From a virus: a stretch of DNA of 64,000 bases. The notes under the pieces are model-generated. The model was given only the letters and a program-made list of their open reading frames with translations. It was not told the origin of the DNA and did not search any database. The stretch is taken from positions 54,099 to 118,098 of IMG/VR virus record IMGVR_UViG_3300042468_000945. One strand, given 5' to 3'. The first letter of the stretch is position 1, and each line of letters starts with the position of its first letter. The position numbers and the translations under genes were made by a program. This document shows, one piece after another, positions 927-63,392 of the stretch.

Positions 927-927
927 A

Positions 928-1434: not shown

Positions 1435-1446
1435 TCAGTATTAGTG

Positions 1447-2874: not shown

Positions 2875-2885
2875 TAATTAATCCC

Positions 2886-3998: not shown

Positions 3999-4000
3999 AA

Positions 4001-5624: not shown

Positions 5625-5644
5625 AAACTACAGATAGTGTAACG

Positions 5645-7292: not shown

Positions 7293-7297
7293 AATAA

Positions 7298-8002: not shown

Positions 8003-8003
8003 A

Positions 8004-23509: not shown

Positions 23510-26500
23510 TTATTGTTGTAGTCGAGACCTAGTACGCTCTTTTTCTGCTTCTATCTCTGAAGATATATCAGAAAAAACGTTTAGGTTAATATTTATTACG
23601 TTTTTTTCGGTGGGAAATTGACTATAATTTACAATTATTTTACCAAATTCGCCAGATGAGGCTAATTTTCCGATTTCTCTCTCTATATTATTCCTTGATC
23701 TTCGGTTCATTCTTGGTACTTCTATATCTCTAGTGTACGCCTTTGCCTTTTCAAGCTTCTTTCTGCTCGGCCTTGCAATCTTAATTCCTTCCAATTCGCT
23801 TGCCCTTGTCTTAATATCCTCAAGGTCAACGTCTCTCTTCCAGCCTTGCCAATCTGCCCCAGGCAAAGCATGGTCTCTAAAGTATTCTTTTAGTGTTGGC
23901 TTATCAGGAACATCATCAACATCTTTACCTAAGAACTTACCTAGAACCCTTTTTTGCGCTCTTGGAAGCAACCTATAAAATTCTTCTTTCTCCCTATCAG
24001 TTCCAGTAGTGACAATTGATTCAGCTATCTGTCTCTGTCTTTTAGGAATGGCATCTAAAGCTTCTTGTAAGGTACCTGACACAACATCAAACCCATACAT
24101 AGTTCTCCGAGCTTTAAACTCAGCATCAGTAGCCAAAGAATTAAACTGAGACTCTTGCATGGTAGCAGATAGTTCGTCTACACCCTCTTTCTTCCTTGCC
24201 GCATTAGATATGGATGCTTCTTTTATAAAGGTCAGAGTATCATAATACTCATCAAACTCAGCACGATCTTTATATCGTTTAGGTGTCCAAGTATCTCCAC
24301 TTACAGCCTCACCTATGTTCCTAATAATGGAAAGACTAGCCCCAACAACAGCAGCAACCTTTGCTACTTTCAACCTAGATTGTCTTGTTCGTGCAAAAAT
24401 AGACGCAGCAAGTGCTGACTGAATACCTGCTGTAATAGGGTCTTTACTTATGATTGAGTTAATTGTTGGTGTGACATAGTTATCTTTAATGTCTCTCAAA
24501 GAGTAGTCATCAGTACCATAAACTTCTCCTCTCTTAAACTGTTCAAGTCCTGTCCTCACGCGCAGATATTTATTTGACACCATATTATCGCTGTGTGTTA
24601 TGTATTCTGTAATGGATGACATAAAACCAGTTCTACCTATGACCCGATTTGCTAGTGGGTTTCTAGATTTGTAATCACTATCAGCATAATCGGACTTAAT
24701 TAATTCTCTATTAACATCCTCAATGATTGCGTCTAATACAGTATGCTTCATTAATTCAGGATTGAATTGACCTTGAATTAATGTGAGGTTTGCCTTTTTA
24801 CCAACACTCAGACCATACTTCTTATAAACATCTTCAGGATTTTGGTAAGTAAACGCTTGAGGGTCAAAATCAACTCCAGCCAGTTTGACAATACCTCGGT
24901 CTGTAATAATATTACCAGTATCTGTAAACCCTTCAATAGTTACTGCTTGAGTCTCTAATCTAACATTTCTCTTAGGGTACAAGTTATACATTTCTGATTT
25001 TCTTCTTGCAATTTCTTTTGCAATTTCAAATCTTCTTGCTTCCATACCACCAAACGCACCAGAATCTTCTGCTCTTTGTAAATATCTTCGATACTCACTT
25101 GATTCTGGAGCCACTTTTGCTAAGACTTCAATTCTTTCAAGCAACCCATAAGTTTCATAGGGACTTACAACACCCTCTTCAATAAGATTTTTAACTCTGT
25201 TTCTTGCTCTTTCAACCTTCTCAAAAATCTCTTGCATACGATGTGGGTCGTATTCATAGCTTTTAATTCTGACTTCAGATGGGTTATCCCTATTAACGTG
25301 AGCAATATGTCCTACCTTTGTTTTTGTAAGGTACATGTAGTACATAAGTTGGTCTTCATATTTTGAGACATCCTCATTAATATTTTCAGTACCCCTAGTC
25401 TTAATTTCAACTACTTCTAACCCACTTTTACCTCTAACCAATGTTTCAATTGTTGCACTACCATTCACAGACTCATCATATGCGGCAATTTCTGCACCAA
25501 CAAGAATACCTTGTTGATTCATTTGTTGCATGATAATTTTATGGGCGGCACTTCCGAACTCCATAATATTCTGGAGTTGTTCTGCTTGTTCTACACCAAC
25601 AGGGTCAAGGAAAGACTTAACCATCTCATCCTCAGACAAACCAATAGAAGAACCTCTTATTTTTAATGGTCGTACAAATGGGTTTGCTCTTTCATAAGCA
25701 TCACCAGGCATTACAAGTTCTCCGTCTGAGACTCTGGCATATGGGTCCCCAGTCCGGAACTTGGAAGGCATCCATCCTGGCATTGAGTTAGGTAAGGGGT
25801 TAAATGCGTCTGGGTCTTGTCTTGGCTCGTCAATAAATCGTCTAAAGAATTCACCAAACATCCCAGTCCCTTTTTCACCAAACTTAGCTGAGTAAAGAAG
25901 TCTATTAGTAGAAAAAGCTTTATCAGGGTCTTGAATCTGGAAGGCATGCTCTTCTGGATAGAAAGGAAGTTGTCTTGCCACCCCACTATAAATACCCATA
26001 GGTGTAATAGTGTGGTGAACCATCTTTTCATACACTTCACTTAAAGCATTGTGGTGGTAATTTTCCTCTTCATAGTGTTTATTGTAACCATACTTGTAGA
26101 CCCTATTATCACCATAAGACCCACCTTCTCCACCGCCGCCCCCGCCTGAACCGTGTCCACCACCTGAACCACCTCCGCCAGAGCCTTTACCTATTCCGAA
26201 ACCTCTAAAAATTCCACCTTCATCAGTAGAACCACCCACTCCTGCATTATCTAAAAAGTCTTCCACAGGTTCCTGACCTTTATAACTAGATAAAACTGCT
26301 TGTAGATAGTTACCCGAATTTTTTGATGCGTAACCTTCTTGACTCTTTTCTAAGTAGTCAAACATTTCTTCTTTGGAAGCGTATGGTCTGTCTTTAGCTG
26401 TTAAGTCTTGTTGCCAGTCTCTGTTAAACAACCTGAAAAGAGGTGCAAAAGGATTAGTAAGAGTTGGTAGGTAACTATAGTTCGGATTTGATAGTTGAAC

Positions 26501-29500
26501 GTTATCTGCTTCAGTCCAGTGAGATTTCCATCTTCGATAAGCATTTGGTCTTGCAGATTCAACAGCACCACCGTATAATGGGTTTCTGTTACCAACACTA
26601 AATAACCTACCTGTTCTTACAAACTCGTTACCATAAAGAATATCTTCTCTTGTCTCTTCTTCAGATAATGGATTTAGATAATTATCTAATCCAGGAACAC
26701 CATATACTAAATTTTTAAGTGGATCTGTTAGACCAAAATTATCTCTAAGTCTTGCACTATTTATTCTTGTATTCGCATATATGTTTGCACTGTAATCATC
26801 AATACCTTCAAGATCTTTTTCGTGCATATCTGCATTAAAGTTTCTATAAAGCTCACCTGCAACTATAACAGGTAAAATCCTTTTTGCGTATAAAGCAGCG
26901 TGTGTTTTTGCAAAGGTAGTCGTGTCTCTTGAGGCAAGTCCTAAACCAGCATCTTCTAAAACCTTAACCGCACCATGAGATAAAGCAGTAAAAGCTGTAC
27001 CAAAATAGCCCTGAGCTTCACTATTATATACCAAGCCTTTTCCAGCACTCAACATACCAAAACCTCTTTTAGCTTGTTCTGCCATCATCTGAAGCATGCT
27101 TTCTTTACTTCCAGTTAACATGGAACCAAGAGAAGGAAAATTAGATGGTAATACAGTATACCTGGAGAATACCTCTTCAGGGACTGTTGGTGGTTCTACT
27201 CCACGTTGAAAAATATTTTTATCGTAATAATCAAAAACCCCTAGGTTATTTGCTAGTTGTTGAGTTGCATTAACAGCCCTATCCTCAGTTTGGGTATAAG
27301 CTGAGAGTAGTAGTGAATCACTCCTATGTTTTTCTAAGCTAATTAACCTAGCTATGGGGTCTTCAATTAAACTATCTATACCTTGTTTTGATGCTAAACC
27401 ACTTGCAATTGACCTTCCAACAGATGGAATATATTCCTCTGCCGCAGTATTAGAAAAAGCTGTGTCAGCAAGATTAGCAAGATTTTGTACTCCAGCACCC
27501 AAATAACTTTCAAAAAACTTAACAGACTCTGGATTTGCTGAGAGGGGGTCTCTAATGTCTCTTAAAAGTCCTTCTAATGTAGTAAAACCAGTCTTGGAAC
27601 CTGCAAGTGCATCTTCAATTTCTTTTACACCTATGTTAACGCTTGCTTCTTCAACTAGTCCTCTTTGTATGTTCTTTTGTAGATATGATAAACTATTTTC
27701 ACCTAATAAAGTATCCTCAACCTTTTCTTTGAAACCACCTTTTGTGGCTTTTGAAACGTCTCCAAGTCTCTCACTATCAGAAACATAGTCTGCCAGAGCT
27801 TTAGATAGTGTGGCACCATACTGGGAGTTAGTCCTTGATTCTAAATCTGACCCCCTTAAAAAAGCACCAAGCTTATCAGTATCACCTGCAACTTCAGCTA
27901 ATTGAACTAAGAAGTCGTCACCATCAAATACTTTTGCTTTGCTTATTGCAGCAATTGCAGTATTAAGATCATTGTAAGAATCTGGCGTAACAGTAGCACC
28001 TAATCTTCTTTGCAAGTCTTGAGCAATAGCCGTAGGGATTTTACCCTCATTTTCTTTTAAGAAACCTGCAACAAGTTTTGGGTGAAGTTGATCAGAAGTG
28101 ACATTACTAGGATCACCACCAAAAAACCTAGTTATTATGTCTGACCCTACACCACCTAAGTTTCTAGGTTTGGCTTTTAGTTTTCCATCTTCTACAAGTA
28201 AAGTAAAGAGTTCAGGTTGAGCATTATAAGCTGCTCTCTCTACTTTAGTCATATTCTTAGACTCTCTTTGGAAGAAGAAATTAGCTGCACCTTTTATGTT
28301 GCCTTTTTCATCCATGTCTGAAAGAAGGTCTTTAAATAAATTATCATCAACAATGTCTGATCTTGCCCTAGACATGTTTTGCAGAATCTCGCTTCTTTCA
28401 TTGTCTAAGTAAGTGAATCTTCTTGCATCGCCTAGATTAAGTTTTTCTAAAACAAATGAATCAGTTTCTTTTAAGTGGTTAACTTTAATAATATCGCTAC
28501 CAATGCCAATACCAAAATCATTTTCACCAAAAGAACCACCCATTCTTTTTAGTTCACCAAGTTTGTTTAAGAATCCAAGATTCTTAATAGGTGTATTATC
28601 TGGCTCTAAAAACTTACCAATGGTTGTAGGAATATTAAAAGTAAAAGGCAGTAATGGAATTTGTCCACCTTTTCTAACAGAACTTGCAACCTTTCTTCTC
28701 ATATTTCTTGCATGAGATAGTGAGACTACTTGACCATCTCCACTCATTGCAAGACCAGTAAAAGTATTATCTACTAATGTGTTTACATCATTTATAATAT
28801 TAGCTGGGACGTTAGGTATTAACGTATCATCTTTACCTTTAGAGTATAAAAGCTCCTCTAAACCTTTTCTTGCTCTGGCTGATACAATATCAACGGTATC
28901 GTCGCTACCTACATTTTTAAGGTACGTTTCAACTGCTGCTTTGTGAGTACCTTCTACATCTTTTAAGGTTAGAAGTTTGTGTGATTTCGTTAAACCTAAA
29001 AGGTCTAGGGTTTTAGTCTCAACAGATTGAGTTTCGTTTAGGTGTCGTTTAATTGAATCAAATAACACATCAGCATTTTTTGCTCCATTAACTCCCTGAA
29101 ATATTGTACTGGTTCTAATGTCTGGAGTCTCTTTGATAGCCTTCTTCATAGACTCTTGAACCATTTTTCTTTGTTTTTCTAGTATTTCTTCCTGTCCAGT
29201 AACGCCCCTAACTGTCTTAAATTGAATTCCAGGAGTGGCTTCTTGGAATCTTTTCATGTGGGTATCTTGTAAAAGACCGTCAGCAATCTTAGAATAATTA
29301 CCATCCATAAAGGAATCAAAAACTTCAGCTACTGCATGTTTCTGAGTATCAAAAGCTTCACGACTTGAATCCTCTACGTTTTCCCTCATAGCATTAAGGA
29401 AGGTAGTTCTCCTCTCAGCTTTTAAAGCACTACTTAAAAAAGACCTTCTAATTCTTGGTACACTATCAGCCATGAAGTTAAAAGAGTCTGAGAAGAGTAT

Positions 29501-29698
29501 TTTACTGTCTTGAACACCAGCTATTGCCCCAATATATTTTCTTAGAGTGGTTCCTTGACCAGCTAATTGAGACGCAACACTTTTACTAATATAAGGAACA
29601 GAACCAAGAGCGACAGCAGCCACACCTGCAAACTTTGCAAATGCTGAAACTTTATCAATAAAAGTTTCTTTCTCTTTGTGAAAATCTGATCCTATCAT
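23510..29698 (-). CDS. Giant virion protein (tape-measure position) with PD-(D/E)XK nuclease-like domain
   Basis: 2062-aa ORF immediately downstream of chaperone-like genes; Gly-rich linker at about 26120-26190; GSAAH..E..EIKT..YEDQLMYY motif set. Confidence 0.6.
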   Translation of the reverse strand: MIGSDFHKEKETFIDKVSAFAKFAGVAAVALGSVPYISKSVASQLAGQGTTLRKYIGAIAGVQDSKILFSDSFNFMADSVPRIRRSFLSSALKAERRTTFLNAMRENVEDSSREAFDTQKHAVAEVFDSFMDGNYSKIADGLLQDTHMKRFQEATPGIQFKTVRGVTGQEEILEKQRKMVQESMKKAIKETPDIRTSTIFQGVNGAKNADVLFDSIKRHLNETQSVETKTLDLLGLTKSHKLLTLKDVEGTHKAAVETYLKNVGSDDTVDIVSARARKGLEELLYSKGKDDTLIPNVPANIINDVNTLVDNTFTGLAMSGDGQVVSLSHARNMRRKVASSVRKGGQIPLLPFTFNIPTTIGKFLEPDNTPIKNLGFLNKLGELKRMGGSFGENDFGIGIGSDIIKVNHLKETDSFVLEKLNLGDARRFTYLDNERSEILQNMSRARSDIVDDNLFKDLLSDMDEKGNIKGAANFFFQRESKNMTKVERAAYNAQPELFTLLVEDGKLKAKPRNLGGVGSDIITRFFGGDPSNVTSDQLHPKLVAGFLKENEGKIPTAIAQDLQRRLGATVTPDSYNDLNTAIAAISKAKVFDGDDFLVQLAEVAGDTDKLGAFLRGSDLESRTNSQYGATLSKALADYVSDSERLGDVSKATKGGFKEKVEDTLLGENSLSYLQKNIQRGLVEEASVNIGVKEIEDALAGSKTGFTTLEGLLRDIRDPLSANPESVKFFESYLGAGVQNLANLADTAFSNTAAEEYIPSVGRSIASGLASKQGIDSLIEDPIARLISLEKHRSDSLLLSAYTQTEDRAVNATQQLANNLGVFDYYDKNIFQRGVEPPTVPEEVFSRYTVLPSNFPSLGSMLTGSKESMLQMMAEQAKRGFGMLSAGKGLVYNSEAQGYFGTAFTALSHGAVKVLEDAGLGLASRDTTTFAKTHAALYAKRILPVIVAGELYRNFNADMHEKDLEGIDDYSANIYANTRINSARLRDNFGLTDPLKNLVYGVPGLDNYLNPLSEEETREDILYGNEFVRTGRLFSVGNRNPLYGGAVESARPNAYRRWKSHWTEADNVQLSNPNYSYLPTLTNPFAPLFRLFNRDWQQDLTAKDRPYASKEEMFDYLEKSQEGYASKNSGNYLQAVLSSYKGQEPVEDFLDNAGVGGSTDEGGIFRGFGIGKGSGGGGSGGGHGSGGGGGGEGGSYGDNRVYKYGYNKHYEEENYHHNALSEVYEKMVHHTITPMGIYSGVARQLPFYPEEHAFQIQDPDKAFSTNRLLYSAKFGEKGTGMFGEFFRRFIDEPRQDPDAFNPLPNSMPGWMPSKFRTGDPYARVSDGELVMPGDAYERANPFVRPLKIRGSSIGLSEDEMVKSFLDPVGVEQAEQLQNIMEFGSAAHKIIMQQMNQQGILVGAEIAAYDESVNGSATIETLVRGKSGLEVVEIKTRGTENINEDVSKYEDQLMYYMYLTKTKVGHIAHVNRDNPSEVRIKSYEYDPHRMQEIFEKVERARNRVKNLIEEGVVSPYETYGLLERIEVLAKVAPESSEYRRYLQRAEDSGAFGGMEARRFEIAKEIARRKSEMYNLYPKRNVRLETQAVTIEGFTDTGNIITDRGIVKLAGVDFDPQAFTYQNPEDVYKKYGLSVGKKANLTLIQGQFNPELMKHTVLDAIIEDVNRELIKSDYADSDYKSRNPLANRVIGRTGFMSSITEYITHSDNMVSNKYLRVRTGLEQFKRGEVYGTDDYSLRDIKDNYVTPTINSIISKDPITAGIQSALAASIFARTRQSRLKVAKVAAVVGASLSIIRNIGEAVSGDTWTPKRYKDRAEFDEYYDTLTFIKEASISNAARKKEGVDELSATMQESQFNSLATDAEFKARRTMYGFDVVSGTLQEALDAIPKRQRQIAESIVTTGTDREKEEFYRLLPRAQKRVLGKFLGKDVDDVPDKPTLKEYFRDHALPGADWQGWKRDVDLEDIKTRASELEGIKIARPSRKKLEKAKAYTRDIEVPRMNRRSRNNIEREIGKLASSGEFGKIIVNYSQFPTEKNVININLNVFSDISSEIEAEKERTRSRLQQ

Positions 29699-50304: not shown

Positions 50305-51542
50305 ACTTTACCTTTTAGCCATTTTTTCATAATACTAGCTGCTTGTTGTGCTTTACCAGTAGCATTAATGGGTGGAGTTTGTGGGTAATTTTTAGCTTTG
50401 GTTGTTTCCTCTAAAAATTCTTTAGCAGATATACCCTCTTTTTTAATTTGTTTTTCGTAGTTTTTTATTGATTTGTTTAGTCCAAGGAATATTTTATTTA
50501 GTGTTGAATCAACTAAATTTCCGTATAGCTTTTGTCTTACCTCATAAGCTTGGAAAAATTGTTGGTCTTGAACTAGAAATTCACTTTCAACATTCTTTAA
50601 AGCATCAAACAAAGATTTTTCTATTGTTTGTCTGTACTTTAAAAGTATAGGGTCTGCTGTAAACGTAGAATTATCTCTCTCCACATCCTCAGTCAAGTTT
50701 AATAGAATATCTTTAGTTCTGTATAGGTAATCAAACCCCCAACTACGAGATAACTTACCATAATTATTACCTGAAACTGTCCCTAGAGAGGTGTCTAAAG
50801 CAGTATCTAGCATTTTAAATTCATCATACAATCTGTCAACTTCTGTAACAAAAGAGAAGTTAGAGAACGATAAATACTTATTAATCTCGTTAGGGTATGT
50901 ACTTGCTAGGTTAAGAATTCCTTTAACAGCATCTTCACTAATAATATCTTCAACTAAACCTTTAATTTTAGATATGTTTTCTCTTATGTTATTAGCTAGT
51001 TGTTGATCCTTTAAGATTACACCAATTAACAATCTTTTTACTGTATCAGAGTTTAAATTATCTCTTTCTAAAAGGGGCATATAAACATTTTCGTAAGCAT
51101 TTTGAATTACAGCTAACTGTCCCCTGCTTCTATAATAGTCTTTAACTAATATAATTTCTGGGTTAGTTTGTCTTCTATAAATGTCCCTTTCAATTATTGT
51201 TTGAATGTTTTCTGGGGGAACTTGTGTTGTTTTATAGTTAGAATCATAAGGGGTGGCAAATTGTACTTTTGCAGCAGCAAAAAATGCGCTAAATACTTCG
51301 TCGTCAGAGTATTTAGCTTCTATTCTATTAATTTCTTCCTGTACTAGACTTGTAGTTGTCTTTACAATATCATATGTATCTTTAAGATAAGAATATGGAG
51401 AAGTTAACTCTACTTTAGTCTGGTTATTGTTCTCAGAGTTGGTTATTTTAATGGAAGTGGTGTCTTCTAGGGTTGTTAAAAGTTGGTCAACCTTCTTTTC
51501 TATTTCTCTTTTATCAATAAAACCAGAAAAACTATTGTTCAT
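50301..51542 (-). CDS. Hypothetical protein
   Basis: 413-aa helical-looking ORF coupled to the terminase stop (TAATG). Confidence 0.6.
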   Translation of the reverse strand: MNNSFSGFIDKREIEKKVDQLLTTLEDTTSIKITNSENNNQTKVELTSPYSYLKDTYDIVKTTTSLVQEEINRIEAKYSDDEVFSAFFAAAKVQFATPYDSNYKTTQVPPENIQTIIERDIYRRQTNPEIILVKDYYRSRGQLAVIQNAYENVYMPLLERDNLNSDTVKRLLIGVILKDQQLANNIRENISKIKGLVEDIISEDAVKGILNLASTYPNEINKYLSFSNFSFVTEVDRLYDEFKMLDTALDTSLGTVSGNNYGKLSRSWGFDYLYRTKDILLNLTEDVERDNSTFTADPILLKYRQTIEKSLFDALKNVESEFLVQDQQFFQAYEVRQKLYGNLVDSTLNKIFLGLNKSIKNYEKQIKKEGISAKEFLEETTKAKNYPQTPPINATGKAQQAASIMKKWLKGKV

Positions 51543-54500
51543 TAAAAATTATCCCTCTCATAACCATAAATTGAATCATCCAAAGATGATCTACTATAGA
51601 GAAAATCTACTGCTTCAAACTCATCTAAATCCATATTTAACATATTATTTTTAATTTGTCTTACAGCATCTTCTTCTGATGGTACAGCTATAACCCCAAA
51701 ATTATCTAAACTTTCGTTAGTCATAGTGTAAGGGTTCTCAAATAATGTAAATATCCCAAACATAGCAAACAAGAAACAGTCAATAATGTGCTCGTTCTTG
51801 CTTGTAAACTTAACAGTATTAGCTGTGGTTTTAATTACTTTATAATCTAAGAATTGTTTTTGAATGTCTTCTCTATTCTTGGGAATCATAAGAAGACTTT
51901 GTTGTGTTTTAGCTCGGAGGAGTTCTACAAGATATGGTTTTACTTTTATCTTCCTATCTTCTCCAGTAAGTTGATCAGGAACTACGACATTGGATTGGAA
52001 AGCTAACCTTGTAAGTTTTTGAGCTAAACCAAGCTCTGGTCGCAGTAAAGCAATACTATTTAAGTCTTCCCATTGCTTCTCAGAGGCCCCTTGGTCAATA
52101 ATCACAAGTGTAGGATTGAACACCTCAAAAAGTTCAACTATTCTGTTAACTGCTAAGGTATAAGTCCACTCACCCTTTGATATCTCTTCGTGCCATATAA
52201 ATTTAAGATTTTTTAGGTAGGGATCATATTGAGAAATAAGGATATTGGTTCCGCACTGTACTTTATCCCAGTCAACCGTTAAGAATATTGGATTATGTGG
52301 GTGAACCTGTTCCATTGACGGTTCCCAATCATATTTGAAAACATTATCAATATCTTCTTTTTTAAAGACTGCACTATCTTCTTCTGCAACTTCTAATAGG
52401 TACTCAGTTGTCCAGGTTGCTTCGCTATTGACAGCAATCCTTTCTTCTTCAATCATATCAAAATCCCATTCTTCATTTTCAGTAATGGGAATTTTAATTA
52501 TTGTTTCATTTTTTGATTTTTTTAAGTTCTTTTCAATTTTCTCGTAGTATTCACCTTCTGCTTTATTAAGAGTACCAGCAACATACGTCCTAATAGATTT
52601 ACGTCTTGTTAAGTCACCACGCATGATTGGCTTAATAACCCTCCAGTCTTCATCGGAGAGTCCTTGACCTTCATCAACAAACACCACGTCAGCAGTAATA
52701 CCACGAAGTTTGTCAGGAGCAGTACCGTTTACACCAAGAATATGTCCATGAATAGTAGAACCAGTAATAAATGTTCTCTTCATTGGGGCACTTGAGTTAC
52801 CTACTGGGTGTACAAACTCTTTTAGTAATGGATTAGCACCAATCCAATCATCAATTGCTTTAAAGAATTCAAGAATTTGAGTGCTTGATGGTGCAAACAC
52901 ATGAATAGCTTTACCCTCTCTTGTTACAGCATGCCATAAAGCAAGTACTGAAAAACAGAAACTATTATGAACAACTACATTGTTTGCTGAGAAGGAGAAG
53001 TTACAATTATCTTTGAGAATGATGTCATATACTTCCCGAATCCCTGCATTTGTTATATTAACAACAAGTTCCCACCTTCTAGGATTTTTAGCTTCGTGTA
53101 TAGCAACGTCTAGGTCTAAAATATCTCTTAAAAACAGATCAGCATCTAAACTATCATCTATTCTTATAAGACCATCCTTTGTCACCCTACAGAAAATATT
53201 AAATCTAAGTAATAGGTGTTGTAAATCAAAAGCAAATGGCTTATTAAATATGGATAAGGTAATATTTTTTTGTTTGTGGTCTAAACGACCATAATTAACA
53301 AATAAAATTTTAAAATAATTCTTTAATGTTAGATAATCAAAATTAAATACAACATCAGGAATGTGGTTCTTGGATATTGTAAAGTTAGCAATATCTTCAA
53401 GTTCTTCGTCAGTTACAGTATTAACTCCATGTTCATATGAACTAAAAGCAAGTATTTGATCACCTATTTTAATTTCACTTGCAGGAATCCAACCACTTTT
53501 CTTTTCATAAACAAGGTGGTCTAAAGAGGGGGTAAGTGACACGCCTGACTCTAATCTAAATTTTACGCAATTTTTATAAATGGGTATTGATAAACTTGCA
53601 CCTGAGTTTTCTGGTTTATTTGAATTTAAGTTGTAGGTAACAGTATTAAAATTATCTTTTACATCTTTAAGTCTTATTGGTCTTAATGTATCTGCATCAA
53701 CAATGAATGAATTCTTATCTAGGCAATTGTGCGTAGGAGTATAGTTATCAGTTATGTATAAATGATCTTCGTCACCAACTGTTATACATTGCATCTCCAC
53801 TCTGGAATCTAATTTTTCAACCTTAACTATAGTTCGTCTTAGATACCTTTCAGGAAGCCCAACACAATTTTTTCTTTCTAAATTGAAGATATTTAGTTCT
53901 GCTGGTACTGTAATGTGTGCTCTGTATCTAGTACCTGTAACCTTTCTTACACCATCCAAAGTGTAACACGCATCAGACTCCTTCACAGACACCTTACAAC
54001 CCAAAGATCGTGCAAGATCAGCAACATCATGGGTGAGTTGTTTAGATACAGTACAAAACTCTGCTGAACCATTCTTATTTCTTTCAGCATGACCATCTGT
54101 GTCCATTAAACCACGTAACAACCAAAGACGTTGTTCAACACTACTATACTTGTAAATATCAGGTATAAACTTAGTATGAGATTTTTTATTTGTCAGCCCT
54201 AAAGATTCTAGGTCTGGGAGGTATTCTTTTCCAAAATCTAAGAAATATCTTTTTGCCTTACTCTTAGTCTCAGAGACTCTTTTTAATTCAAAGCCAGTTC
54301 TTTTTTGAATGGTAGTAATGATTTCTTCATCAGCACTTGTAATCTCACCTGTTGATAGTGAACCATCACCCAATAATACACCCATTAAGTATGGGTCAAT
54401 AGGAAGTGTATTGGCACTATGCTCAACAGGTTTAACAGGGTTTAATTTATATCTGAACTCAGCTTTGTCACTGTACTTATAAATGTATGTGTTGAGAATC

Positions 54501-54988
54501 TCTTCTGTAGTTTTAACTACATTGCCACGTTGAAGTTTTCTTGTTAATCTAGATCCTTTACTTCCAAGTGCAGTATAAATCTCCCATTCGTGGTCTTTAC
54601 CCGAATCCACATAAGTACCATCTGATAAGTGGATTCTGTAAACATCTTGTATTCCATGAGGTATAATATTAGTTACAGGTGCTGTTTTACCATTCGGGGT
54701 AGACACTGTTGTACCTATTTTGACATCCCCCATTCTTATAGGACCTTTTGGAGTATACACTAAGGAGTCCAAAGGTTGCATTTTCCCGGCACGTCGATGG
54801 ACACATACCCAAGTATCTCGGGCAGTAGAGCTCATTATGATTCTTTGGGGGTACTGAGCCTTGAATGGCTTGTATGGGGGTCCTGGGTTTGGACTGAATA
54901 GAAACGTCTCAGCAAACGTTAAAGGACTGCTTTTTGCTTTCTGAAAAGCCTCCACCATTTCTGGTGTTAATTCATTCTGATCGAACAT
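51542..54988 (-). CDS. terL: Terminase large subunit with two tandem inteins
   Basis: AQYPQ adenine-binding Q, Walker A HRRAGK|S split by inteins, Walker B VVFVDEGQ, nuclease FLTVDWD and HIIDC; 542 aa after removing both inteins. Confidence 0.93.
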   Translation of the reverse strand: MFDQNELTPEMVEAFQKAKSSPLTFAETFLFSPNPGPPYKPFKAQYPQRIIMSSTARDTWVCVHRRAGKMQPLDSLVYTPKGPIRMGDVKIGTTVSTPNGKTAPVTNIIPHGIQDVYRIHLSDGTYVDSGKDHEWEIYTALGSKGSRLTRKLQRGNVVKTTEEILNTYIYKYSDKAEFRYKLNPVKPVEHSANTLPIDPYLMGVLLGDGSLSTGEITSADEEIITTIQKRTGFELKRVSETKSKAKRYFLDFGKEYLPDLESLGLTNKKSHTKFIPDIYKYSSVEQRLWLLRGLMDTDGHAERNKNGSAEFCTVSKQLTHDVADLARSLGCKVSVKESDACYTLDGVRKVTGTRYRAHITVPAELNIFNLERKNCVGLPERYLRRTIVKVEKLDSRVEMQCITVGDEDHLYITDNYTPTHNCLDKNSFIVDADTLRPIRLKDVKDNFNTVTYNLNSNKPENSGASLSIPIYKNCVKFRLESGVSLTPSLDHLVYEKKSGWIPASEIKIGDQILAFSSYEHGVNTVTDEELEDIANFTISKNHIPDVVFNFDYLTLKNYFKILFVNYGRLDHKQKNITLSIFNKPFAFDLQHLLLRFNIFCRVTKDGLIRIDDSLDADLFLRDILDLDVAIHEAKNPRRWELVVNITNAGIREVYDIILKDNCNFSFSANNVVVHNSFCFSVLALWHAVTREGKAIHVFAPSSTQILEFFKAIDDWIGANPLLKEFVHPVGNSSAPMKRTFITGSTIHGHILGVNGTAPDKLRGITADVVFVDEGQGLSDEDWRVIKPIMRGDLTRRKSIRTYVAGTLNKAEGEYYEKIEKNLKKSKNETIIKIPITENEEWDFDMIEEERIAVNSEATWTTEYLLEVAEEDSAVFKKEDIDNVFKYDWEPSMEQVHPHNPIFLTVDWDKVQCGTNILISQYDPYLKNLKFIWHEEISKGEWTYTLAVNRIVELFEVFNPTLVIIDQGASEKQWEDLNSIALLRPELGLAQKLTRLAFQSNVVVPDQLTGEDRKIKVKPYLVELLRAKTQQSLLMIPKNREDIQKQFLDYKVIKTTANTVKFTSKNEHIIDCFLFAMFGIFTLFENPYTMTNESLDNFGVIAVPSEEDAVRQIKNNMLNMDLDEFEAVDFLYSRSSLDDSIYGYERDNF
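52964..53725 (-). mobile_element. Class-1 intein with degenerate endonuclease remnant (residues 422-675)
   Basis: Starts CLDKNS; block B PSLDHL, block F VYDII, ends VVHN followed by Ser; remnant IPDVVF...DLQHLLLRFNI lacks acidic LAGLIDADG motifs. Confidence 0.9.
53726..54781 (-). mobile_element. Class-3 intein with LAGLIDADG homing endonuclease (residues 70-421)
   Basis: Starts MQPLDS; block B DHEW (Trp), block F MQCITV (Cys), block G PTHN (Thr); endonuclease motifs LMGVLLGDGS and LRGLMDTDG. Confidence 0.9.
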
Positions 54989-54998
54989 TGTCTATCTT

Positions 54999-55472
54999 TT
55001 ACCTTGATAAGTATCTTGATGCCATAATAGTTGCTTCGCTTCCTACTAGACCGTAATTTTTATTCATTTCTTGTTGGGTATTTTGAAAACTAGCATATGC
55101 TAAGTCCATACCCTGTGGAGAAGCAGAAAAGGGAACAGAAGCCATCATTCTAGCCTGTCCAGACCCTCTAATAAGCCCTCCAACATGTTTTGTGTATTCT
55201 CCAGCACCTAAAGCCATTGAGAAGGCTGTACCGCCAATAAATTGACCCCACCAACCAAAACCAGAAAACAGGTAACCACCAGCAATAGCTGTAGCAGTAT
55301 CTCGTACCTTGGATTCTTGTGGTGCGGTTATGAAAGTTAAACCACCTACAAGAGCAGTATTAGTAAGAAGGTTATGGTATGGGTTACCAGCAAGTTTACT
55401 GTTTCTCTTTAGTGCTCCAAAAGTTTTCCCAGCAAATTTTGCTCCGATAGGTGAAAATAATCTACCCAGCAT
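54999..55472 (-). CDS. Hypothetical Gly/Ala-rich hydrophobic protein
   Basis: 157 aa; TALVGGLTFI, AIAGGYLFSGFGWWGQFIGGTAFSMALG. Confidence 0.6.
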   Translation of the reverse strand: MLGRLFSPIGAKFAGKTFGALKRNSKLAGNPYHNLLTNTALVGGLTFITAPQESKVRDTATAIAGGYLFSGFGWWGQFIGGTAFSMALGAGEYTKHVGGLIRGSGQARMMASVPFSASPQGMDLAYASFQNTQQEMNKNYGLVGSEATIMASRYLSR

Positions 55473-56152
55473 TATAACCTACTATTCCTCCCCATTATCG
55501 CTCGTCCGTAAGACGCATTGGCACCCATGTCGTTAATATTTCTAATATTTGTACCATCATAGTACACGGTAGGGTCGGGTGTTTGATAAGGTAAACCTTG
55601 AATTAAACCAACAGCTGCGGAACCAACACCAAGAGCAGCAACACCCTTTTTAACCATGCTTTTATTAGGTGAAAATCTTCTTTCATCTGCTACTGTTCTT
55701 GTAAATGCGTGGCTACCACCTTGTACTTGTTGAACTTTAATACCTTTAAGACTTGCAGCAGCTTTAGCATCAACAGCATTGTCTATCAGATCTTGTTGTG
55801 TTATTGCTGTATCAGTATAGTCCACAGTCTGCCCAAACAATTTACCAACTTTACCACCTCTAGGGTTATGAGATTTCATACCCATTTTTTTGTAAAAATC
55901 AGGTGTAACTAGTTTTTCAATCTCACCCCCACTTACAAGCCTATCAGCGGTGTCGTTTGCGTAGGGGAATAGTTTTTTAACTGCTTGAGAAGCATTCTTT
56001 GCTTTAGCTCGAAAAATTCCAAAAAAGTTTGTATCTAAGGCATTTGTAGCACCTACAAATGCACCTTCTGCACCTTTAATAATATTAGATACTATTCTAG
56101 GGGCTTTTGCAAGGTTTCCAGCTAATGCACTAAATAAACTCATTATTATCAC
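55472..56152 (-). CDS. Hypothetical protein with C-terminal hydrophobic helix
   Basis: 226 aa; KGVAALGVGSAAVGLI. Confidence 0.55.
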   Translation of the reverse strand: MIIMSLFSALAGNLAKAPRIVSNIIKGAEGAFVGATNALDTNFFGIFRAKAKNASQAVKKLFPYANDTADRLVSGGEIEKLVTPDFYKKMGMKSHNPRGGKVGKLFGQTVDYTDTAITQQDLIDNAVDAKAAASLKGIKVQQVQGGSHAFTRTVADERRFSPNKSMVKKGVAALGVGSAAVGLIQGLPYQTPDPTVYYDGTNIRNINDMGANASYGRAIMGRNSRL

Positions 56153-56888
56153 CTTCTTTTGGTGGTTCTAGGGATTGTGGTTCTTCTCCAAACAACTGTG
56201 AAGTAAATAGTTTTTTGAGTTGTTCTTTATCCCCACCAAACTGTGCCGCCATAGTTAACCTATCCTTTCTAGAAGCAATTAAACTTTTCTTAGTAGAATC
56301 AATCTGCTTATCAATAGCATTAGCTACTTTTAATAGGGGGTGCTCTTTCATTTCACCAAAAGCTTTTTTAGTTTTATGGTCAATAGCGTTAACAGCTTCA
56401 ATAGTCATACCCTCTACAGCAATGTCCCAATCAATCCTTCTCCTATATATATAGAGTCTGACAAGGTTAGCAACGTCTAGAATATCAACAGCTTGACCAG
56501 GTTCAATATTAAGGTCTTTAACTAATGTTGTAAAGTGTTGGATTCCAAGATACTTTTCTTCTCTGCATCTTGTCCCTTCTAAGATATGGTAATTTGAAGG
56601 GTCCATTGCTTTTAAGGTAGGACACACAGAAGCATAGTGACACTTCTTTGTATTACAAATCATAGGCATGTCACTAATAACAGGAAGTTTTTTAGGGATT
56701 TTTACCTTATTTGATGGGTCCCATTTAGTATTGAACAACATAAAAGTTGCAAGATTCCACAAAGAATCATCAAATTCATCTTCAGTTATTGGAGCTACAA
56801 TACTAAACTTAGTAGCCTCACTCTTTATGCTGTCTTTTGAAGGTAAGTGAAACTCGCCTTCATGTTGTACTATATTATTATCTTCCAT
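56130..56888 (-). CDS. Hypothetical Cys-cluster protein (possible small terminase)
   Basis: ICNTKKCHYASVCP...TRC cluster then helical region; the ATG at 56888 (MEDNN) reduces the overlap with the upstream gene. Function inferred from position. Confidence 0.4.
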   Translation of the reverse strand: MEDNNIVQHEGEFHLPSKDSIKSEATKFSIVAPITEDEFDDSLWNLATFMLFNTKWDPSNKVKIPKKLPVISDMPMICNTKKCHYASVCPTLKAMDPSNYHILEGTRCREEKYLGIQHFTTLVKDLNIEPGQAVDILDVANLVRLYIYRRRIDWDIAVEGMTIEAVNAIDHKTKKAFGEMKEHPLLKVANAIDKQIDSTKKSLIASRKDRLTMAAQFGGDKEQLKKLFTSQLFGEEPQSLEPPKEGDNNEFI

Positions 56889-57312
56889 ATTTTTTAGGAT
56901 TTTTATACCCATGATTTAAATCGTTTAAATCATAGCTAATCTTTTTTAGACAAATTACTTTAACAATTTCATCATCCAAAATTCTTTTCTTATTTTTTAA
57001 GTGGTGTAAGTTCTTATATTGACTTACATTCTTGGCACCATAATTAGTATCCCACTCTTTTTTAGTAATATTTCTTAATCTTGTATCTCTTAAATATATT
57101 ACATCATAATACTCAGACGTTAATATATTCTTTTCCTCAGTACAATCATTAAGGAAATCATCATCACTAAAAACATTAAGTTTAAAGCTAGATGTTAGAT
57201 TTGTTGATTTAGCAAATCCTGCTTCTGGGTTAAGTACCAAGCAAAAGACAGGTAAAACATCAATATAATCATACTCGGTTTTTGGTACTGTAAAATCTGT
57301 GTGCATTTTCAT
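56878..57312 (-). CDS. Hypothetical protein
   Basis: 144 aa; GAGG RBS. Confidence 0.6.
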   Translation of the reverse strand: MKMHTDFTVPKTEYDYIDVLPVFCLVLNPEAGFAKSTNLTSSFKLNVFSDDDFLNDCTEEKNILTSEYYDVIYLRDTRLRNITKKEWDTNYGAKNVSQYKNLHHLKNKKRILDDEIVKVICLKKISYDLNDLNHGYKNPKKYGR

Positions 57313-57379
57313 AACTTCCTCAATAACAGTAATTAGTGTAATATTACAATTATTTTATTAATTTATTACTTTTGTACTT

Positions 57380-57397
57380 AAATAGAGACTTCTATTT
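57380..57397. promoter_or_regulatory. Inverted repeat giving a CTATTT motif on both strands of the divergent intergenic region
   Basis: aaataga-gact-tctattt; the same motif recurs upstream of several minus-strand genes. Confidence 0.4.
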
Positions 57398-57412
57398 GGT
57401 TAGTAGTAATAA

Positions 57413-60400
57413 ATGAGTATATTTGACGAAGGTTTAAAGAATAAACAGGAAGATAATGGTTATGAGTTAGGTGATTATAACTATAACAAAGGTGGGTTAC
57501 GATCTCTTGAACTGCCAGCAATGGGTGGTCTAACTCAACCAACTACTATTATTTTCAGAAACGGAAATGACGGCAAACCTCCAGAAGCTATAGCTGAACT
57601 TAAAAGATTACTTGACCTTCAAAATTCAAGGAAAAGTGCAAGTGATGAGGAAAGAAAGTTTTTAGCTAAACAAATAGCAAACCACTTAACCTCTCCTAGA
57701 ACACAGAGTTACTTTGAAAAGACTGCTTTCTTAAACATGGAAGCAGCCGCAAATATTGATATTGGAAGAGGTTTATCTTCCTTTGTTGAAAAAACGTATG
57801 CAAAACAAGGGTATGAAATAGAGATTATTAAAGCAAAACTTGTTGGAAGCACTACTGGTATTCCCCTACACGAATCAACCCTTGAAGCACATAAAAAGTA
57901 TCTTGCTGGACAAGGTAAAAACCCATTTGGAAAGTTTGGAGAGTATAATGTTGATACTAGCCAAACAGCGTATTACCACCTAGAAACAACAAAATCTGGA
58001 CATAACTTACTGCATATGAATGATATTCTTGCAGGATCAATGGTTATGGACTTTGACGGAGACATGGTTACATCTATGGTAGCCAGAAAACGAGACCCTG
58101 TAACTGGTAAAATAACTTCGGAATTTATGATTCCGTATAAAGAACCTCTTACCCAAAAAACCCCCAGATTTAGAAATATTGATTATGAAAGTGATATAAA
58201 GTTTAATAAAGGCAAACCTTTTGGAACGTTTGCTGGATTAAACTACTCTGATTTAGGTGTTCAAACAAACAAAGGAGAAATAAAAGCAGCGTTTTCTGGA
58301 GAAATGAGAAACAGAAAATATTCTGTTTTAGGTGATTTTTTACGTGCCTATGAAAAACCAGAAGCTAGAGAAGGGTTTTCACGAATCAGAGACATTGATT
58401 CTCTACGAGAAACATTAGCAGAAAAATCCTTTAAAGCCAATACTGTTGGGCTTGATACAAACCTGTACCAGGCACAAGCAAATATTGAAAACATTAGGGC
58501 TTTACATTACGTAAGAAGAGCAAATCCAAGTTTATACAAGCAAATGCTTCTTGAACAACAAGAACAGATTGCTGAATATCTTAGAACTTCAAGAACAGGA
58601 GATCAAACTATTCTAGGAACAAAAATAATTGGTAAAAAACAAAAATCAGAATTATATGGAGATAATTTTGAAGGTTTCCTAAACCGCTTAACAACTATTA
58701 ACTTAGATGACGCTGATAATTTAACCCCAGAAACAAACCAATTACTGCATGATCAATTAGTTAGTAGTACTCTTACTAGAGGTGTTTCAGATAGGTTCTT
58801 GGGTGAGTACCACCAAACACTAAGAACTAATGATCCAGCAAATCCTTTTATGAGTAATGGTCAACTAGATAATATTGACTGGATAGGTAAAGGACCATTA
58901 GCTAATCCTAACTATATATTTGAGATTGAAGGTGGTATGAAGACTACCAGAACTACAAATAAAGTTCAAGAAGTACAGGATGGAGTTAAGGATACTTATA
59001 GAAGATATGTAGATGGTAATCCATTTATCAATAAACTAAAAAACCTCCATAAATTAAAACCACAAGAACATGATGATCTCATATCCGAATTACTTGGACA
59101 AGAAGATGGTGAGTTTGTTGATAAATTTGTAGACGCTATGTTTTTAAATGATGTCCCTTATTCTGAAAGGGAGAAAACTATTGCCCAACTCATGGCAAAT
59201 AAGAAGGCAAAACCAGTTGGTGCGTTCTTTAAATATGAAGACGGACAGTATAAAAAAACTACATTAGCTAGATTACAAAAGGAGCATATTGTTGAAACTC
59301 AGGAGCTTTTTGGGTTTGCTGGTATTAGAAAAAACAGGGGTGTTGACTATACAGCTTCACCGCTTGCAATTCTAATCAGGGATATTAATGGTAACTTAGT
59401 AGGACCTTCAAAGGATGATATTATTGGTGTATCAGTTATGGGCAATGTTGCAGCTATGCAAGGCAGCAAAATGACAATGCTTAACAGAGAACAATACCTT
59501 GCATTAGAACTAGAAAGAAGGCTTCAAGATAGTAGATTTGCTGGTTCTAGAGGGTTTCTAGAAGCTCCAGAGCAAGGTAGTTTTAGTGCTAGTGATATAA
59601 AAAACAAATTAATGTATGATAATGATGGCTTCAGAAAAAAGATTTTTGAAGCGTATCAGGGAGTTCATCAAGCACCAACTCAAGATGATACACCAATTAT
59701 CCAAGACCTTATTAATAGATTAAGTAGCACTAATAAGGAAGAAGTATCAAGAACCCATAAAGAAATTATTAGAAGATATGACCTTACACATAGAAGAGAC
59801 CTAATGACGGCAGTACAAGGACACCTAAGAGACATTGTTGCTGCTGTTGGTGGTCGTAATAATATTGATGCTAGGATTGAAAACTATGGGTGGGGTGAGA
59901 ATGGGATTCAATTAAAAGGTGTAGCAGATGATGGTATTGATTCTCTTACAATAAGTGCTATGTCAAGTACGTTGGGTATTGATACTGAACATCTTGGCAT
60001 GAAATCCGAGCATAAGGCAAACATAATGATGGAAGCCTTTAAAAAGTTTGGTGGTTTTAATAGAAAAAATACTGGTTCAGAAAGCGATAGGTATTTATTA
60101 ATGACTATGGGGGAGAGGGCAGGTGAAATTACCCCAGTAGGTACAAATAAGAACTACTTTATGCCAAGAGACTTAGCTAAAAGAATGTCTGATATTCAAA
60201 GACAAACAATTGGTGGAACCGCATTAGGTAAGGTCAGGGTTGCATTAGCTGAAACTGAAATATCAGAAGAATATTTTAATATGATTAATCCTAGTGCGTC
60301 TTTAGGTCTAAAAAGGGCAGATGAAGGTTTAATCTTAATTTCAAAACAATTTAGTAATAGGGCGGCGGCAAAGATTAAGGCTCAGTTACGAGTTGGTCCA

Positions 60401-61342
60401 ACTATTGGTGCAGATGATTTTGAATCGGCATTAGCTTCATTTGTAGAGTTTGGAGTTGGAGAAGCTAGAGTAAATAGTACGGATAGACGACTAACACCAA
60501 CAGAGCTTAAGGAAATGAGGAGAAAGCTCACAGAAGAATTTAAAAATCTTTATAGATACGATGATAGCAACGGTAAAAGACAGTATGTTACTACTGATGA
60601 AGGTCTTGACAGGGTAATCTCTAAAAACTTTAAACTAGTTTCACTATTGGGTGATAAGGGAGTTGTGAGTGTTGTTGATAGTATTCAAGATGAAGATGGA
60701 AAAGAGATTGACATCTTAATGCACATAAACCAAGCAAGATCAAGGTCAAATGAAATTGCAAGATACCAAGAAGTTATTCAAACTGCTGTTAATGAGGGTA
60801 GGTTATCTGTGGAAGACCTTGGACCAGAATTCCAAGCATCAGCTAAAAATGGATTTATTAATTTTGATGAGATATACGCAAAACATGGTGGTAACCAAGA
60901 AGAATTCCTGGCAAAAATTAAAACAGGTTTTATAGATCCGTTAGAGAGAGCACAACAAGCAGTTGCTTTTAGACATGAGGGTGTAAGCCAACATTTTAAA
61001 ACTAGCATATTTGAAACTGATAACTTTGTTGCTGCTGGTAACTGGGGAGACATATATAGAGACCAGAAAGCGGCAGAACTTATCATTGAATCACAAAGCA
61101 AGAACAAACTTATTGGTAGGATAGCTAATGCCCTTGATAATGAGACAGGTTCAGGGCTTGTAGGATTGGGTGTTCAGCTTGGTATGCATATGGCAGTTTC
61201 GTATGCAAGCCAGAAAATAGCTGTTAATGCCCTAGAAACAGGGGTTGTACAACATATGACAGCAGAAGAGTTACTTATCAATTCAAAGAAGATGCTTGGT
61301 ATAGGAAAAGCTTTACAAGATTCACTGGAAGATTATTTATAA
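57413..61342 (+). CDS. Single-chain two-barrel (DPBB) RNA polymerase candidate, beta'-barrel then beta-barrel
   Basis: LLHMNDILAGSMVMDFDGD (D213/D215/D217); DEGLILISKQF; FKLVSLLGDKGVVS (K1074/K1082, same 8-residue spacing as E. coli beta K1065/K1073); DGKEIDILMH...SRSN. Confidence 0.8.
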   Translation: MSIFDEGLKNKQEDNGYELGDYNYNKGGLRSLELPAMGGLTQPTTIIFRNGNDGKPPEAIAELKRLLDLQNSRKSASDEERKFLAKQIANHLTSPRTQSYFEKTAFLNMEAAANIDIGRGLSSFVEKTYAKQGYEIEIIKAKLVGSTTGIPLHESTLEAHKKYLAGQGKNPFGKFGEYNVDTSQTAYYHLETTKSGHNLLHMNDILAGSMVMDFDGDMVTSMVARKRDPVTGKITSEFMIPYKEPLTQKTPRFRNIDYESDIKFNKGKPFGTFAGLNYSDLGVQTNKGEIKAAFSGEMRNRKYSVLGDFLRAYEKPEAREGFSRIRDIDSLRETLAEKSFKANTVGLDTNLYQAQANIENIRALHYVRRANPSLYKQMLLEQQEQIAEYLRTSRTGDQTILGTKIIGKKQKSELYGDNFEGFLNRLTTINLDDADNLTPETNQLLHDQLVSSTLTRGVSDRFLGEYHQTLRTNDPANPFMSNGQLDNIDWIGKGPLANPNYIFEIEGGMKTTRTTNKVQEVQDGVKDTYRRYVDGNPFINKLKNLHKLKPQEHDDLISELLGQEDGEFVDKFVDAMFLNDVPYSEREKTIAQLMANKKAKPVGAFFKYEDGQYKKTTLARLQKEHIVETQELFGFAGIRKNRGVDYTASPLAILIRDINGNLVGPSKDDIIGVSVMGNVAAMQGSKMTMLNREQYLALELERRLQDSRFAGSRGFLEAPEQGSFSASDIKNKLMYDNDGFRKKIFEAYQGVHQAPTQDDTPIIQDLINRLSSTNKEEVSRTHKEIIRRYDLTHRRDLMTAVQGHLRDIVAAVGGRNNIDARIENYGWGENGIQLKGVADDGIDSLTISAMSSTLGIDTEHLGMKSEHKANIMMEAFKKFGGFNRKNTGSESDRYLLMTMGERAGEITPVGTNKNYFMPRDLAKRMSDIQRQTIGGTALGKVRVALAETEISEEYFNMINPSASLGLKRADEGLILISKQFSNRAAAKIKAQLRVGPTIGADDFESALASFVEFGVGEARVNSTDRRLTPTELKEMRRKLTEEFKNLYRYDDSNGKRQYVTTDEGLDRVISKNFKLVSLLGDKGVVSVVDSIQDEDGKEIDILMHINQARSRSNEIARYQEVIQTAVNEGRLSVEDLGPEFQASAKNGFINFDEIYAKHGGNQEEFLAKIKTGFIDPLERAQQAVAFRHEGVSQHFKTSIFETDNFVAAGNWGDIYRDQKAAELIIESQSKNKLIGRIANALDNETGSGLVGLGVQLGMHMAVSYASQKIAVNALETGVVQHMTAEELLINSKKMLGIGKALQDSLEDYL

Positions 61343-61343
61343 A

Positions 61344-61370
61344 AATAGGTTACCCATTGGGTAACCTATT
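61344..61370. terminator. Bidirectional terminator between convergent genes
   Basis: aataggttaccc-att-gggtaacctatt, 12-bp stem flanked by A/T tracts. Confidence 0.8.
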
Positions 61371-62327: not shown

Positions 62328-62403
62328 TGGTACGCGATCTGAGAATTGAACTCAGCTAAACTAGCTTGTAAAGATAGCGTGTTCACCAGAACACTAATCG
62401 CGC
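62328..62403 (-). tRNA. trnV: tRNA-Val(TAC)
   Basis: GCGCGAT acceptor, anticodon loop TT-TAC-AA, T arm TTCAATT, encoded CCA. Confidence 0.88.
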
Positions 62404-62409
62404 ATAAAT

Positions 62410-62483
62410 TGGAGCGAAATAAGAGATTCGAACTCTTACGAACAGTTTGGAAAACTGGGATGCTACCATTACATCAATTTCGC
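62410..62483 (-). tRNA. trnG: tRNA-Gly(TCC)
   Basis: GCGAAAT/ATTTCGC acceptor, loop TT-TCC-AA, TTCGAAT, U73, CCA. Confidence 0.9.
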
Positions 62484-62486
62484 ATT

Positions 62487-62564
62487 TGGAGGGTGGTAAA
62501 AGAATCGAACTTTTCTAATATAGATTAACAGTCTATTGCAATAACCCAGATATGCTAACCACCC
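62487..62564 (-). tRNA. trnN: tRNA-Asn(GTT)
   Basis: GGGTGGT/ACCACCC acceptor, ATAGA-CT-GTT-AA-TCTAT, TTCGATT, CCA. Confidence 0.9.
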
Positions 62565-62571
62565 TTAAATA

Positions 62572-62659
62572 TGGAGGAAAAGAAGGGATTCGAACCCTTG
62601 AGACCTTTCAGCCCTCTTGCTTTCAAGGCAAGCCTAATTAACCGCTCTAGCACTTTTCC
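62572..62659 (-). tRNA. trnS: tRNA-Ser(TGA)
   Basis: GGAAAAG/CTTTTCC acceptor, CTTGC-CT-TGA-AA-GCAAG, long variable arm, CCA. Confidence 0.92.
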
Positions 62660-62665
62660 TTAAAA

Positions 62666-62753
62666 TGGAGGAGAGTACAGGATTTGAACCTGTGGGGGCT
62701 TTCACCCCGATTCCTTAGCAGGGAACCGCTATAAACCACTCTGCCAACTCTCC
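62666..62753 (-). tRNA. trnS: tRNA-Ser(GCT)
   Basis: GGAGAGT/ACTCTCC acceptor, loop CT-GCT-AA, long variable arm, CCA. Confidence 0.92.
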
Positions 62754-63213: not shown

Positions 63214-63299
63214 TGGTGCCACTATGAGGATTCGAACCCCTTATCCGTAAGGCAAGCGGGCTACAACCGCTCCGACATCCCACTGTCGTCAGTAGTGAC
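63214..63299 (-). tRNA. trnY: tRNA-Tyr(GTA), somewhat non-canonical
   Basis: GTCACTA/TAGTGGC acceptor, AGCGG-TT-GTA-GC-CCGCT, long variable arm, TTCGAAT, CCA; C8, G37 and a T-stem mismatch. Confidence 0.75.
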
Positions 63300-63315
63300 A
63301 AATTGTTTCTTAAAA

Positions 63316-63392
63316 TGGAGCTCGGGGTGGGATTCAAACCCACGATGTCTTACTTACAAGGTAAGTGCATTAGATCGCTATGCTACCCAAGC
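63316..63392 (-). tRNA. trnT: tRNA-Thr(TGT)
   Basis: GCTTGGG/CCCGAGC acceptor, CTTAC-CT-TGT-AA-GTAAG, T loop TTTGAAT, CCA. Confidence 0.9.

Follow-up and report, generated by a model that had tools for sequence, protein, structure and literature searches.

The 64,000-nt window analysed here is the last 64 kb of the 118,098-bp IMG/VR virus record IMGVR_UViG_3300042468_000945, which CheckV rates as 66% complete (window position equals genome position minus 54098). It contains an uninterrupted open reading frame (ORF) at 57413..61342 on the + strand, coding for a candidate single-chain two-barrel polymerase of 1309 aa (about 150 kDa), hereafter P0001. An initial annotation, made from the letters of the sequence, had read this protein as a compact, permuted phage RNA polymerase (RNAP), and each of the motifs on which it relied was recovered at exactly the residues given: GIPLHES at 149, LLHMN at 199, DFDGD at 213-217, DEGLILISKQF at 970, KLVSLLGDKGVVS at 1074 and SRSN at 1110.

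P0001 was matched by no Pfam family (E up to 1) and by no PHROG, nor by any PDB entry, whether searched by sequence or by family profile. A tblastn search of 50,697 phage records was likewise empty. When 1.84 billion cluster representatives were searched exhaustively with phmmer, without a length filter, only 12 proteins were found, eight of which represent clusters of full-length relatives (1181-1318 aa, 27-45% identity over matched stretches). Split or longer fused forms were absent from this search, and none of the full-length relatives carries a functional name. The contigs of the relatives reach 194-245 kb. The P0001 family is very rare and comes from uncultured giant phages.

An alignment of nine family members, P0001 included, was used in what follows. 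Identity to P0001 ranges from 23 to 42%, and Pfam matched none of the nine. Only 42 of the 1309 columns (about 3%) are invariant; they include I150, P151, D213, D215, D217, K967, R968, E971, G972, S977, K1074, G1080 and K1082. Since P151, D213/D215/D217, E971, K1074 and K1082 are among so few invariant positions, the motifs are more than chance resemblances, and it is on the candidate catalytic residues that constraint in the family is strongest. The nine-sequence alignment contains no second conserved DxDxD.

The C-terminal half of P0001

Residues 606-1222 (59228..61078, + strand) resemble the β/Rpb2 subunit of multisubunit RNAPs. Residues 100-1299 were modelled with AlphaFold2 from the nine-sequence alignment; the model has a mean predicted local distance difference test score (pLDDT) of 58, the score being 70-85 over model residues 510-1110. 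When the PDB was searched with Foldseek, the best 50 chains were all RNAP β/Rpb2-type subunits (E from 7e-4, probability up to 0.99). The clearest result was obtained in a fold search of 48,161 representatives by a method other than Foldseek, in which β pieces of the non-virion RNAPs of phages phiKZ and AR9 were among the best matches and the top nine rows were all of RNAP β type. Model residues 838-1111 matched RNAP β barrels, generic double-psi β-barrel (DPBB) proteins and designed DPBBs. This fold match and the predicted secondary structure delimit a β-type DPBB at residues 937-1210 (60221..61042, + strand), interrupted by a helical insert of about 100 residues between E971 and K1074.

The family profile was aligned to E. 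coli β with hhalign. The single best alignment places residues 1074-1127 on 1065-1122 (P 0.014) and pairs K1074 with K1065 and K1082 with K1073. The basic residues of a β-type barrel (Rpb2 K979/K987) thus have their counterparts in the invariant K1074 and K1082. These residues open the segment K1074-x7-K1082-GVVS...DG.EIDI...SRSN (60632..60751, + strand), which combines the β basic motif and the next conserved block; multisubunit enzymes have the same K-x7-K spacing and the same DG..(I/V)DI...SRxN block. Upstream of the insert, K967-R-A-D-E971-G-L-I-L-I-S977 (60311..60343, + strand) is the putative counterpart of the β E813/D814 ('ED') element. E971 is invariant within K-R-x-D-E-G-L-I-L, which resembles F-E-D-S-I-L-V of β when compared by eye, and would stand for the β-type acidic residue (Rpb2 D837) as Glu instead of Asp. 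Two fold searches, each independent of the other, therefore bear out the β-type elements that the initial annotation had placed in this half, as does a profile alignment falling on the lysines of E. coli β, and the predicted β-like fold of the C-terminal half is well supported.

A spurious likeness to RNAP would require chance motifs to coincide with a structural match of middling quality to a large chain of many domains. We regard this as highly improbable. The top nine rows of the unbiased search all belong to one protein family, represent highly diverse organisms and are well separated from the rows below them, and the sequence alignment independently falls on the β lysine motif, where the family-invariant residues coincide.

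The N-terminal DxDGD region and the active site

Residues 134-255 (57812..58177, + strand) constitute a candidate β′-type catalytic barrel, identified from the secondary structure in two AlphaFold runs and from weak hhalign matches. The two models agree (pLDDT about 66-80) on a strand at 134-146, the G-I-P-L-H loop, a helix, strands at 185-192 and 198-203, a helix at 204-210, the DFDGD loop and strands at 218-227 and 234-241. We take this order to be that of β′ from NRAPTLH to QMAVHVP. Within the region, G149-I-P-L-H153 (57857..57871, + strand) is the likely counterpart of the RxPxLH loop, as judged by motif and predicted topology, its Pro and Ile being invariant. The candidate Mg-binding triad is D213-F-D215-G-D217 (58049..58063, + strand), in which the three Asp are invariant.

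The single best hhalign match to E. coli β′ places residues 200-223 on 447-470, around NADFDGD. This match is weak (P 0.12), and the match to a β′ barrel profile of 81 proteobacterial sequences is barely better (P 0.035). It aligns D213/D215/D217 to β′ D460/462/464, the equivalents of the Rpb1 triad D479/D481/D483, and places a Val or Met of the family at the position of β′ N458. Those language-model neighbours of residues 125-265 that have a family name all belong to the RNA-dependent RNA polymerase (RdRP) family PF05183 (score 0.84), which we treat as a lead only. A separate model of the N-terminal part was poor (pLDDT 51.7); four fold searches with it, including Foldseek against the PDB and against BFVD, matched only helical hairpins or coiled coils over residues 28-115 and are uninformative on residues 134-255. 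Further along the chain, two long predicted helices at residues 328-395 (58394..58597, + strand) carry the conserved stretch V-G-L-x-T-N-L, with G346 and N350 invariant; they may represent the bridge helix, whose start this stretch resembles when judged by eye. In hhalign runs with alternative alignments no further collinear β or β′ segment was detected, at this candidate bridge helix or elsewhere. A DPBB in the N-terminal part of P0001 is plausible from the motif, its conservation, the predicted secondary structure and the weak profile and language-model matches. The compact permuted RNAP of the initial annotation thus stands in part, as regards the β-type C-terminal half and the invariant Asp triad upstream of it, the N-terminal barrel being indicated by motif and weak matches.

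We consider it fairly probable that P0001 is a compact two-barrel polymerase in a single chain, belongs to the multisubunit lineage and has the β′ part first. A reduced β′-type module (residues ~134-255 with D213xD215GD217, then long helices) would precede a nearly complete, slimmed β-type module (residues ~606-1222 with E971 and K1074-x7-K1082). The two barrels would be in contact with each other, with the catalytic Mg ions bound by the three Asp, and the 3′ end and second metal by the two Lys together with E971 of the C-terminal barrel. The nucleic-acid cleft would be formed by the β-like lobe and protrusion. Its role would be that of a DNA-dependent RNA polymerase belonging to the phage itself, with RNA as the presumed product.

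Some results weigh against this proposal. At E up to 10, nothing in the genome matches the Pfam family RNA_pol_Rpb2_6 (PF00562), with a control that was positive in 14 of 14 genomes, though the fold match is clear; neither an Rpb1 nor an Rpb2 hidden Markov model (HMM) matches P0001. In addition, the Arg of RxPxLH (Rpb1 R446), which the initial annotation had found wanting in P0001, is missing throughout the family: the position is Gly or a gap in nine of nine members, with no conserved basic residue nearby. The family loop reads G-I-P-(L/V/I)-x, and P151 (Rpb1 P448) is invariant. Eight residues are described as invariant across all two-barrel RNAPs (Ruprich-Robert & Thuriaux 2010, PMC2919709). 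P0001 keeps six of them, the β Asp being changed to Glu (E971) and the Arg of RxP being missing.

With one canonical invariant residue missing and another changed, P0001 could descend from an RNAP but be catalytically dead or no polymerase at all, serving as a structural, DNA-binding or host-RNAP-mimicking protein. The lack of an RNAP HMM match and the proximity of the gene to virion genes would agree with such a role. However, the metal triad, both lysines and E971 are strictly kept over deep divergence, which is the pattern of a selected active site, and we find a dead enzyme quite unlikely.

In multisubunit RNAPs, the RxPxLH Arg is located beside the ribose of the nucleoside triphosphate that is coming in and helps to select ribonucleoside triphosphates (rNTPs) (PMC7708050, PMC2919709). 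PolD, a two-barrel DNA polymerase, has GLAPHT at the same loop, with a steric-gate His (PMC7708050). Neither the RxPxLH Arg nor the PolD His is present in the P0001 family. If P0001 were a two-barrel polymerase whose sugar or template specificity is altered, such as a DNA polymerase, a primase-like enzyme or one with relaxed use of rNTPs and deoxyribonucleoside triphosphates (dNTPs), this would account for the family-wide loss of the rNTP-selecting Arg, a loss shared with PolD, and for the Val or Met at the position of β′ N458. Nevertheless, the residue after Pro is Leu, Val or Ile and not the steric-gate His of PolD, and the β-like half resembles RNAP subunits, PolD not being among the listed matches. 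We therefore hold altered specificity to be very unlikely. RNA synthesis remains the most likely activity as judged from the residues present, since P0001 has the full RNAP DxDGD triad and not the NxDGD of PolD, and since the phage genome already supplies a family A DNA polymerase.

Alternatively, P0001 could be the β-like subunit of a multisubunit phage RNAP, as in phiKZ and AR9, with the gene for its β′ partner in the third of the genome that is unsequenced and its own N-terminal DxDGD region unrelated or accessory. Structural confirmation concerns only the β-like half, the non-virion β pieces of those two phages rank among its best matches, and the incompleteness of the contig (66%) and of that of a relative (84%) leaves room for a partner. 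This explanation is at odds with several findings. D213/D215/D217 are invariant where only 3% of columns are, and the best hhalign match to β′ falls exactly on NADFDGD. No β′-type domain was found in the 118 kb and 194 kb available from two members, and all nine members have the same 1181-1318 aa architecture, with no split form in the exhaustive search. We consider a separate β-like subunit unlikely.

Genome setting and control elements

The P0001 gene is transcribed away from the start of the long − strand block of virion genes, in agreement with the divergent arrangement described in the initial annotation. The same annotation called it the only long + strand gene. This holds within the window, where the other + strand ORFs of at least 100 aa all lie inside longer − strand ORFs, but not for the whole 118-kb contig, which has a + strand replication block at genome positions 301-16393 (family A DNA polymerase, UvsX-like recombinase, ribonucleotide reductase, RIIA/RIIB).

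The divergent gap contains an inverted repeat, AAATAGA-GACT-TCTATTT (57381..57397), which presents CTCTATT on the − strand and TTCTATTT on the + strand, 15 nt before the ATG of the P0001 gene. The arrangement is conserved upstream of the gene of a 26%-identical relative (contig L099, 9930-10000): the element reads AAATAGAG-AC-TTCTATTTGGTTAG here and AAATAGAG-GC-ACTATTTGTTAG there. Several virion genes of the present genome also have CTCTATT(T) 8-25 nt ahead of their start codons. The sites lie in the window at 57313-57412 and in the genome gaps 53312-53338, 76132-76191, 90332-90370, 91289-91314 and 95483-95561. CTCTATT is not enriched in the window overall (19 matches against 14.1 expected) and is notable only in its placement before starts. 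We propose it as a candidate phage promoter or operator, and its distribution suggests a control element common to the polymerase gene and virion genes. Such sharing fits a polymerase that reads the element, its own gene included, as well as late synthesis for packaging, and decides neither. The position beside the virion operon and the CTCTATTT-type element together suggest a link to late transcription of virion genes or to late expression for packaging, a timing that would follow from the setting. At its other end, the P0001 gene is followed directly after the stop codon by a hairpin with a 12-bp stem and a T-rich tail (61344..61370, + strand), located between convergent genes.

The − strand virion block includes the portal gene, the terminase gene and giant tail proteins. 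The terminase-like ORF (51542-54988, − strand) has 1148 aa, about twice the usual size, and is separated from the P0001 gene by four small − strand ORFs of 157, 226, 260 and 144 aa (54999-57312) that have no PHROG match. Three giant ORFs of the virion module, all on the − strand, code for 2634 aa (8674-16578, matching a giant 'endolysin' PHROG), 1572 aa (17315-22033) and 2062 aa (23510-29698, with a RecE/Cas4-like nuclease stretch); the searches run found no RNAP motifs in them. Beyond the P0001 gene lie small − strand genes, seven − strand tRNA genes (Val, Gly, Asn, two Ser, Tyr and Thr) in two clusters (62328-62753 and 63214-63392) and a ligase-like gene.

The locus was compared in one relative, P0006, which is 26% identical to P0001 and is carried by the 194-kb IMG/VR contig L099 (84% complete). 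Its gene occupies the same place, divergent from small genes of similar size to the four ORFs above; the terminase slot is filled by a 1028-aa ORF (L099 4176-7262), and the portal is 45% identical. No YonO/RdRP-type domain, β′-type domain or sigma-70 region 2 was found in these two partial genomes (118 kb and 194 kb). A search of them for T7-type RNAP (PF00940) was also empty, but its control matched nowhere and the search is uninformative.

The portal of the present phage is 29% identical to that of the Bacillus jumbo phage 0305phi8-36, a distant cousin. In that phage the gene for a YonO-like RNAP (NC_009760 208026-211766, − strand; L098:3029-6766) adjoins the right terminal repeat and lies on the strand opposite the virion operon, in a genome position roughly analogous to that of the P0001 gene.

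Barrel order and comparison with known two-barrel polymerases

In P0001 the triad at 213-217 precedes the lysines 1074/1082 by about 860 residues. Because the only invariant Asp triad lies so far upstream of the lysines, the order of the barrels would be reversed, β′ then β, if P0001 is a polymerase. This differs from the described single-chain enzymes that were checked, in which the lysine (B) barrel is N-terminal to the DxDGD (A) barrel; the YonO family is reported to have this order as well. In QDE-1, the basic barrel (D709, R738, K743) comes before R962, P964 and D1007-1011 (PMC2919709), which bears out in print, for QDE-1, the earlier statement that known enzymes put the lysine barrel first. 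The DP2 subunit of PolD has K392/K398 before N962xDGD (PMC7708050), and crAss gp66 and P23-45 gp64 also have the lysine barrel first (PMC10770324). Hence, every described single-chain two-barrel enzyme checked in print (QDE-1, crAss gp66, P23-45 gp64 and PolD) has this order. In the YonO-like protein of 0305phi8-36, DTDGD is located mid-chain, at residue 601 of 1246. Full-text literature searches returned no description of a β′-first single-chain enzyme, which does not prove that none exists.

Among transcription enzymes, two-barrel polymerases are the oldest, and the lysine-barrel-first order of the single-chain forms checked shapes models of how the ancestral enzyme originated. There is about an even chance that P0001 represents a new lineage of minimal cell-type RNAP, with reversed cores in one ~150-kDa chain and without the ribose-sensing Arg described as invariant. 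If so, either connectivity could give rise to a two-barrel active site, connectivity itself being unconstrained, and P0001 would provide a minimal one-gene model for the β/β′ core. It would also make it possible to test which function depends on the RxPxLH arginine, and could reveal a new way of selecting, or failing to select, rNTPs, possibly with acceptance of dNTPs.

P0001 most likely derives from the multisubunit (β/β′) lineage and not from that of YonO and QDE-1. YonO of SPbeta, the YonO-like protein of 0305phi8-36 and the QDE-1-type RdRPs are likewise single-chain two-barrel enzymes of similar size, and phage-encoded forms are known. However, the C-terminal half of P0001 resembles β and not QDE-1, in which the spacing is R738-x4-K743 (PMC2919709) as against K-x7-K. 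The 1246-aa YonO-like protein of 0305phi8-36 matches RdRP PF05183 (E 1.3e-18), a positive control for the failure of P0001 to do so. The P0001 family profile finds no match in 0305phi8-36, and hhalign against its YonO-like protein gave a probability of 0.2. We also considered P0001 as a circular permutation of the YonO-like protein and rejected it, as the family profile does not align to that protein. For phage biology, it is a reasonable inference from these comparisons that the phage RNAP was exchanged for a non-orthologous one within the 0305phi8-36-like group of giant phages.

Among the closest known systems are the β/β′ subunits of multisubunit RNAPs, including the non-virion enzymes of phiKZ (PDB 7ogp) and AR9 (PDB 7s00) and RPB2 of African swine fever virus and vaccinia virus. 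P0001 differs from them in being one chain of 1309 aa, where they have two or more chains totalling about 2,750 aa, and in having the β′ part first. It shows no detectable clamp, zinc or jaw elements, the RxPxLH Arg is absent and Glu replaces the β Asp. Its insert consists of about 100 helical residues and is not a flap of SBHM (sandwich-barrel hybrid motif) type; cellular β carries its flap at this place, and YonO and the RdRPs have none (PMC7824862).

The RNAPs of crAss-like phage phi14:2 (gp66) and Thermus phage P23-45 (gp64/gp96), which are virion-packaged or fused to the tape measure, belong to the other major two-barrel clade. In the RpoBC fusions of Helicobacter and Wolbachia, β comes first and the subunits are full-size or nearly so, whereas P0001 is reversed and less than half the size. 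Fusions of β to β′ and the killer-plasmid RNAPs (PMC7281927) carry both large subunits in one polypeptide, as proposed here for P0001.

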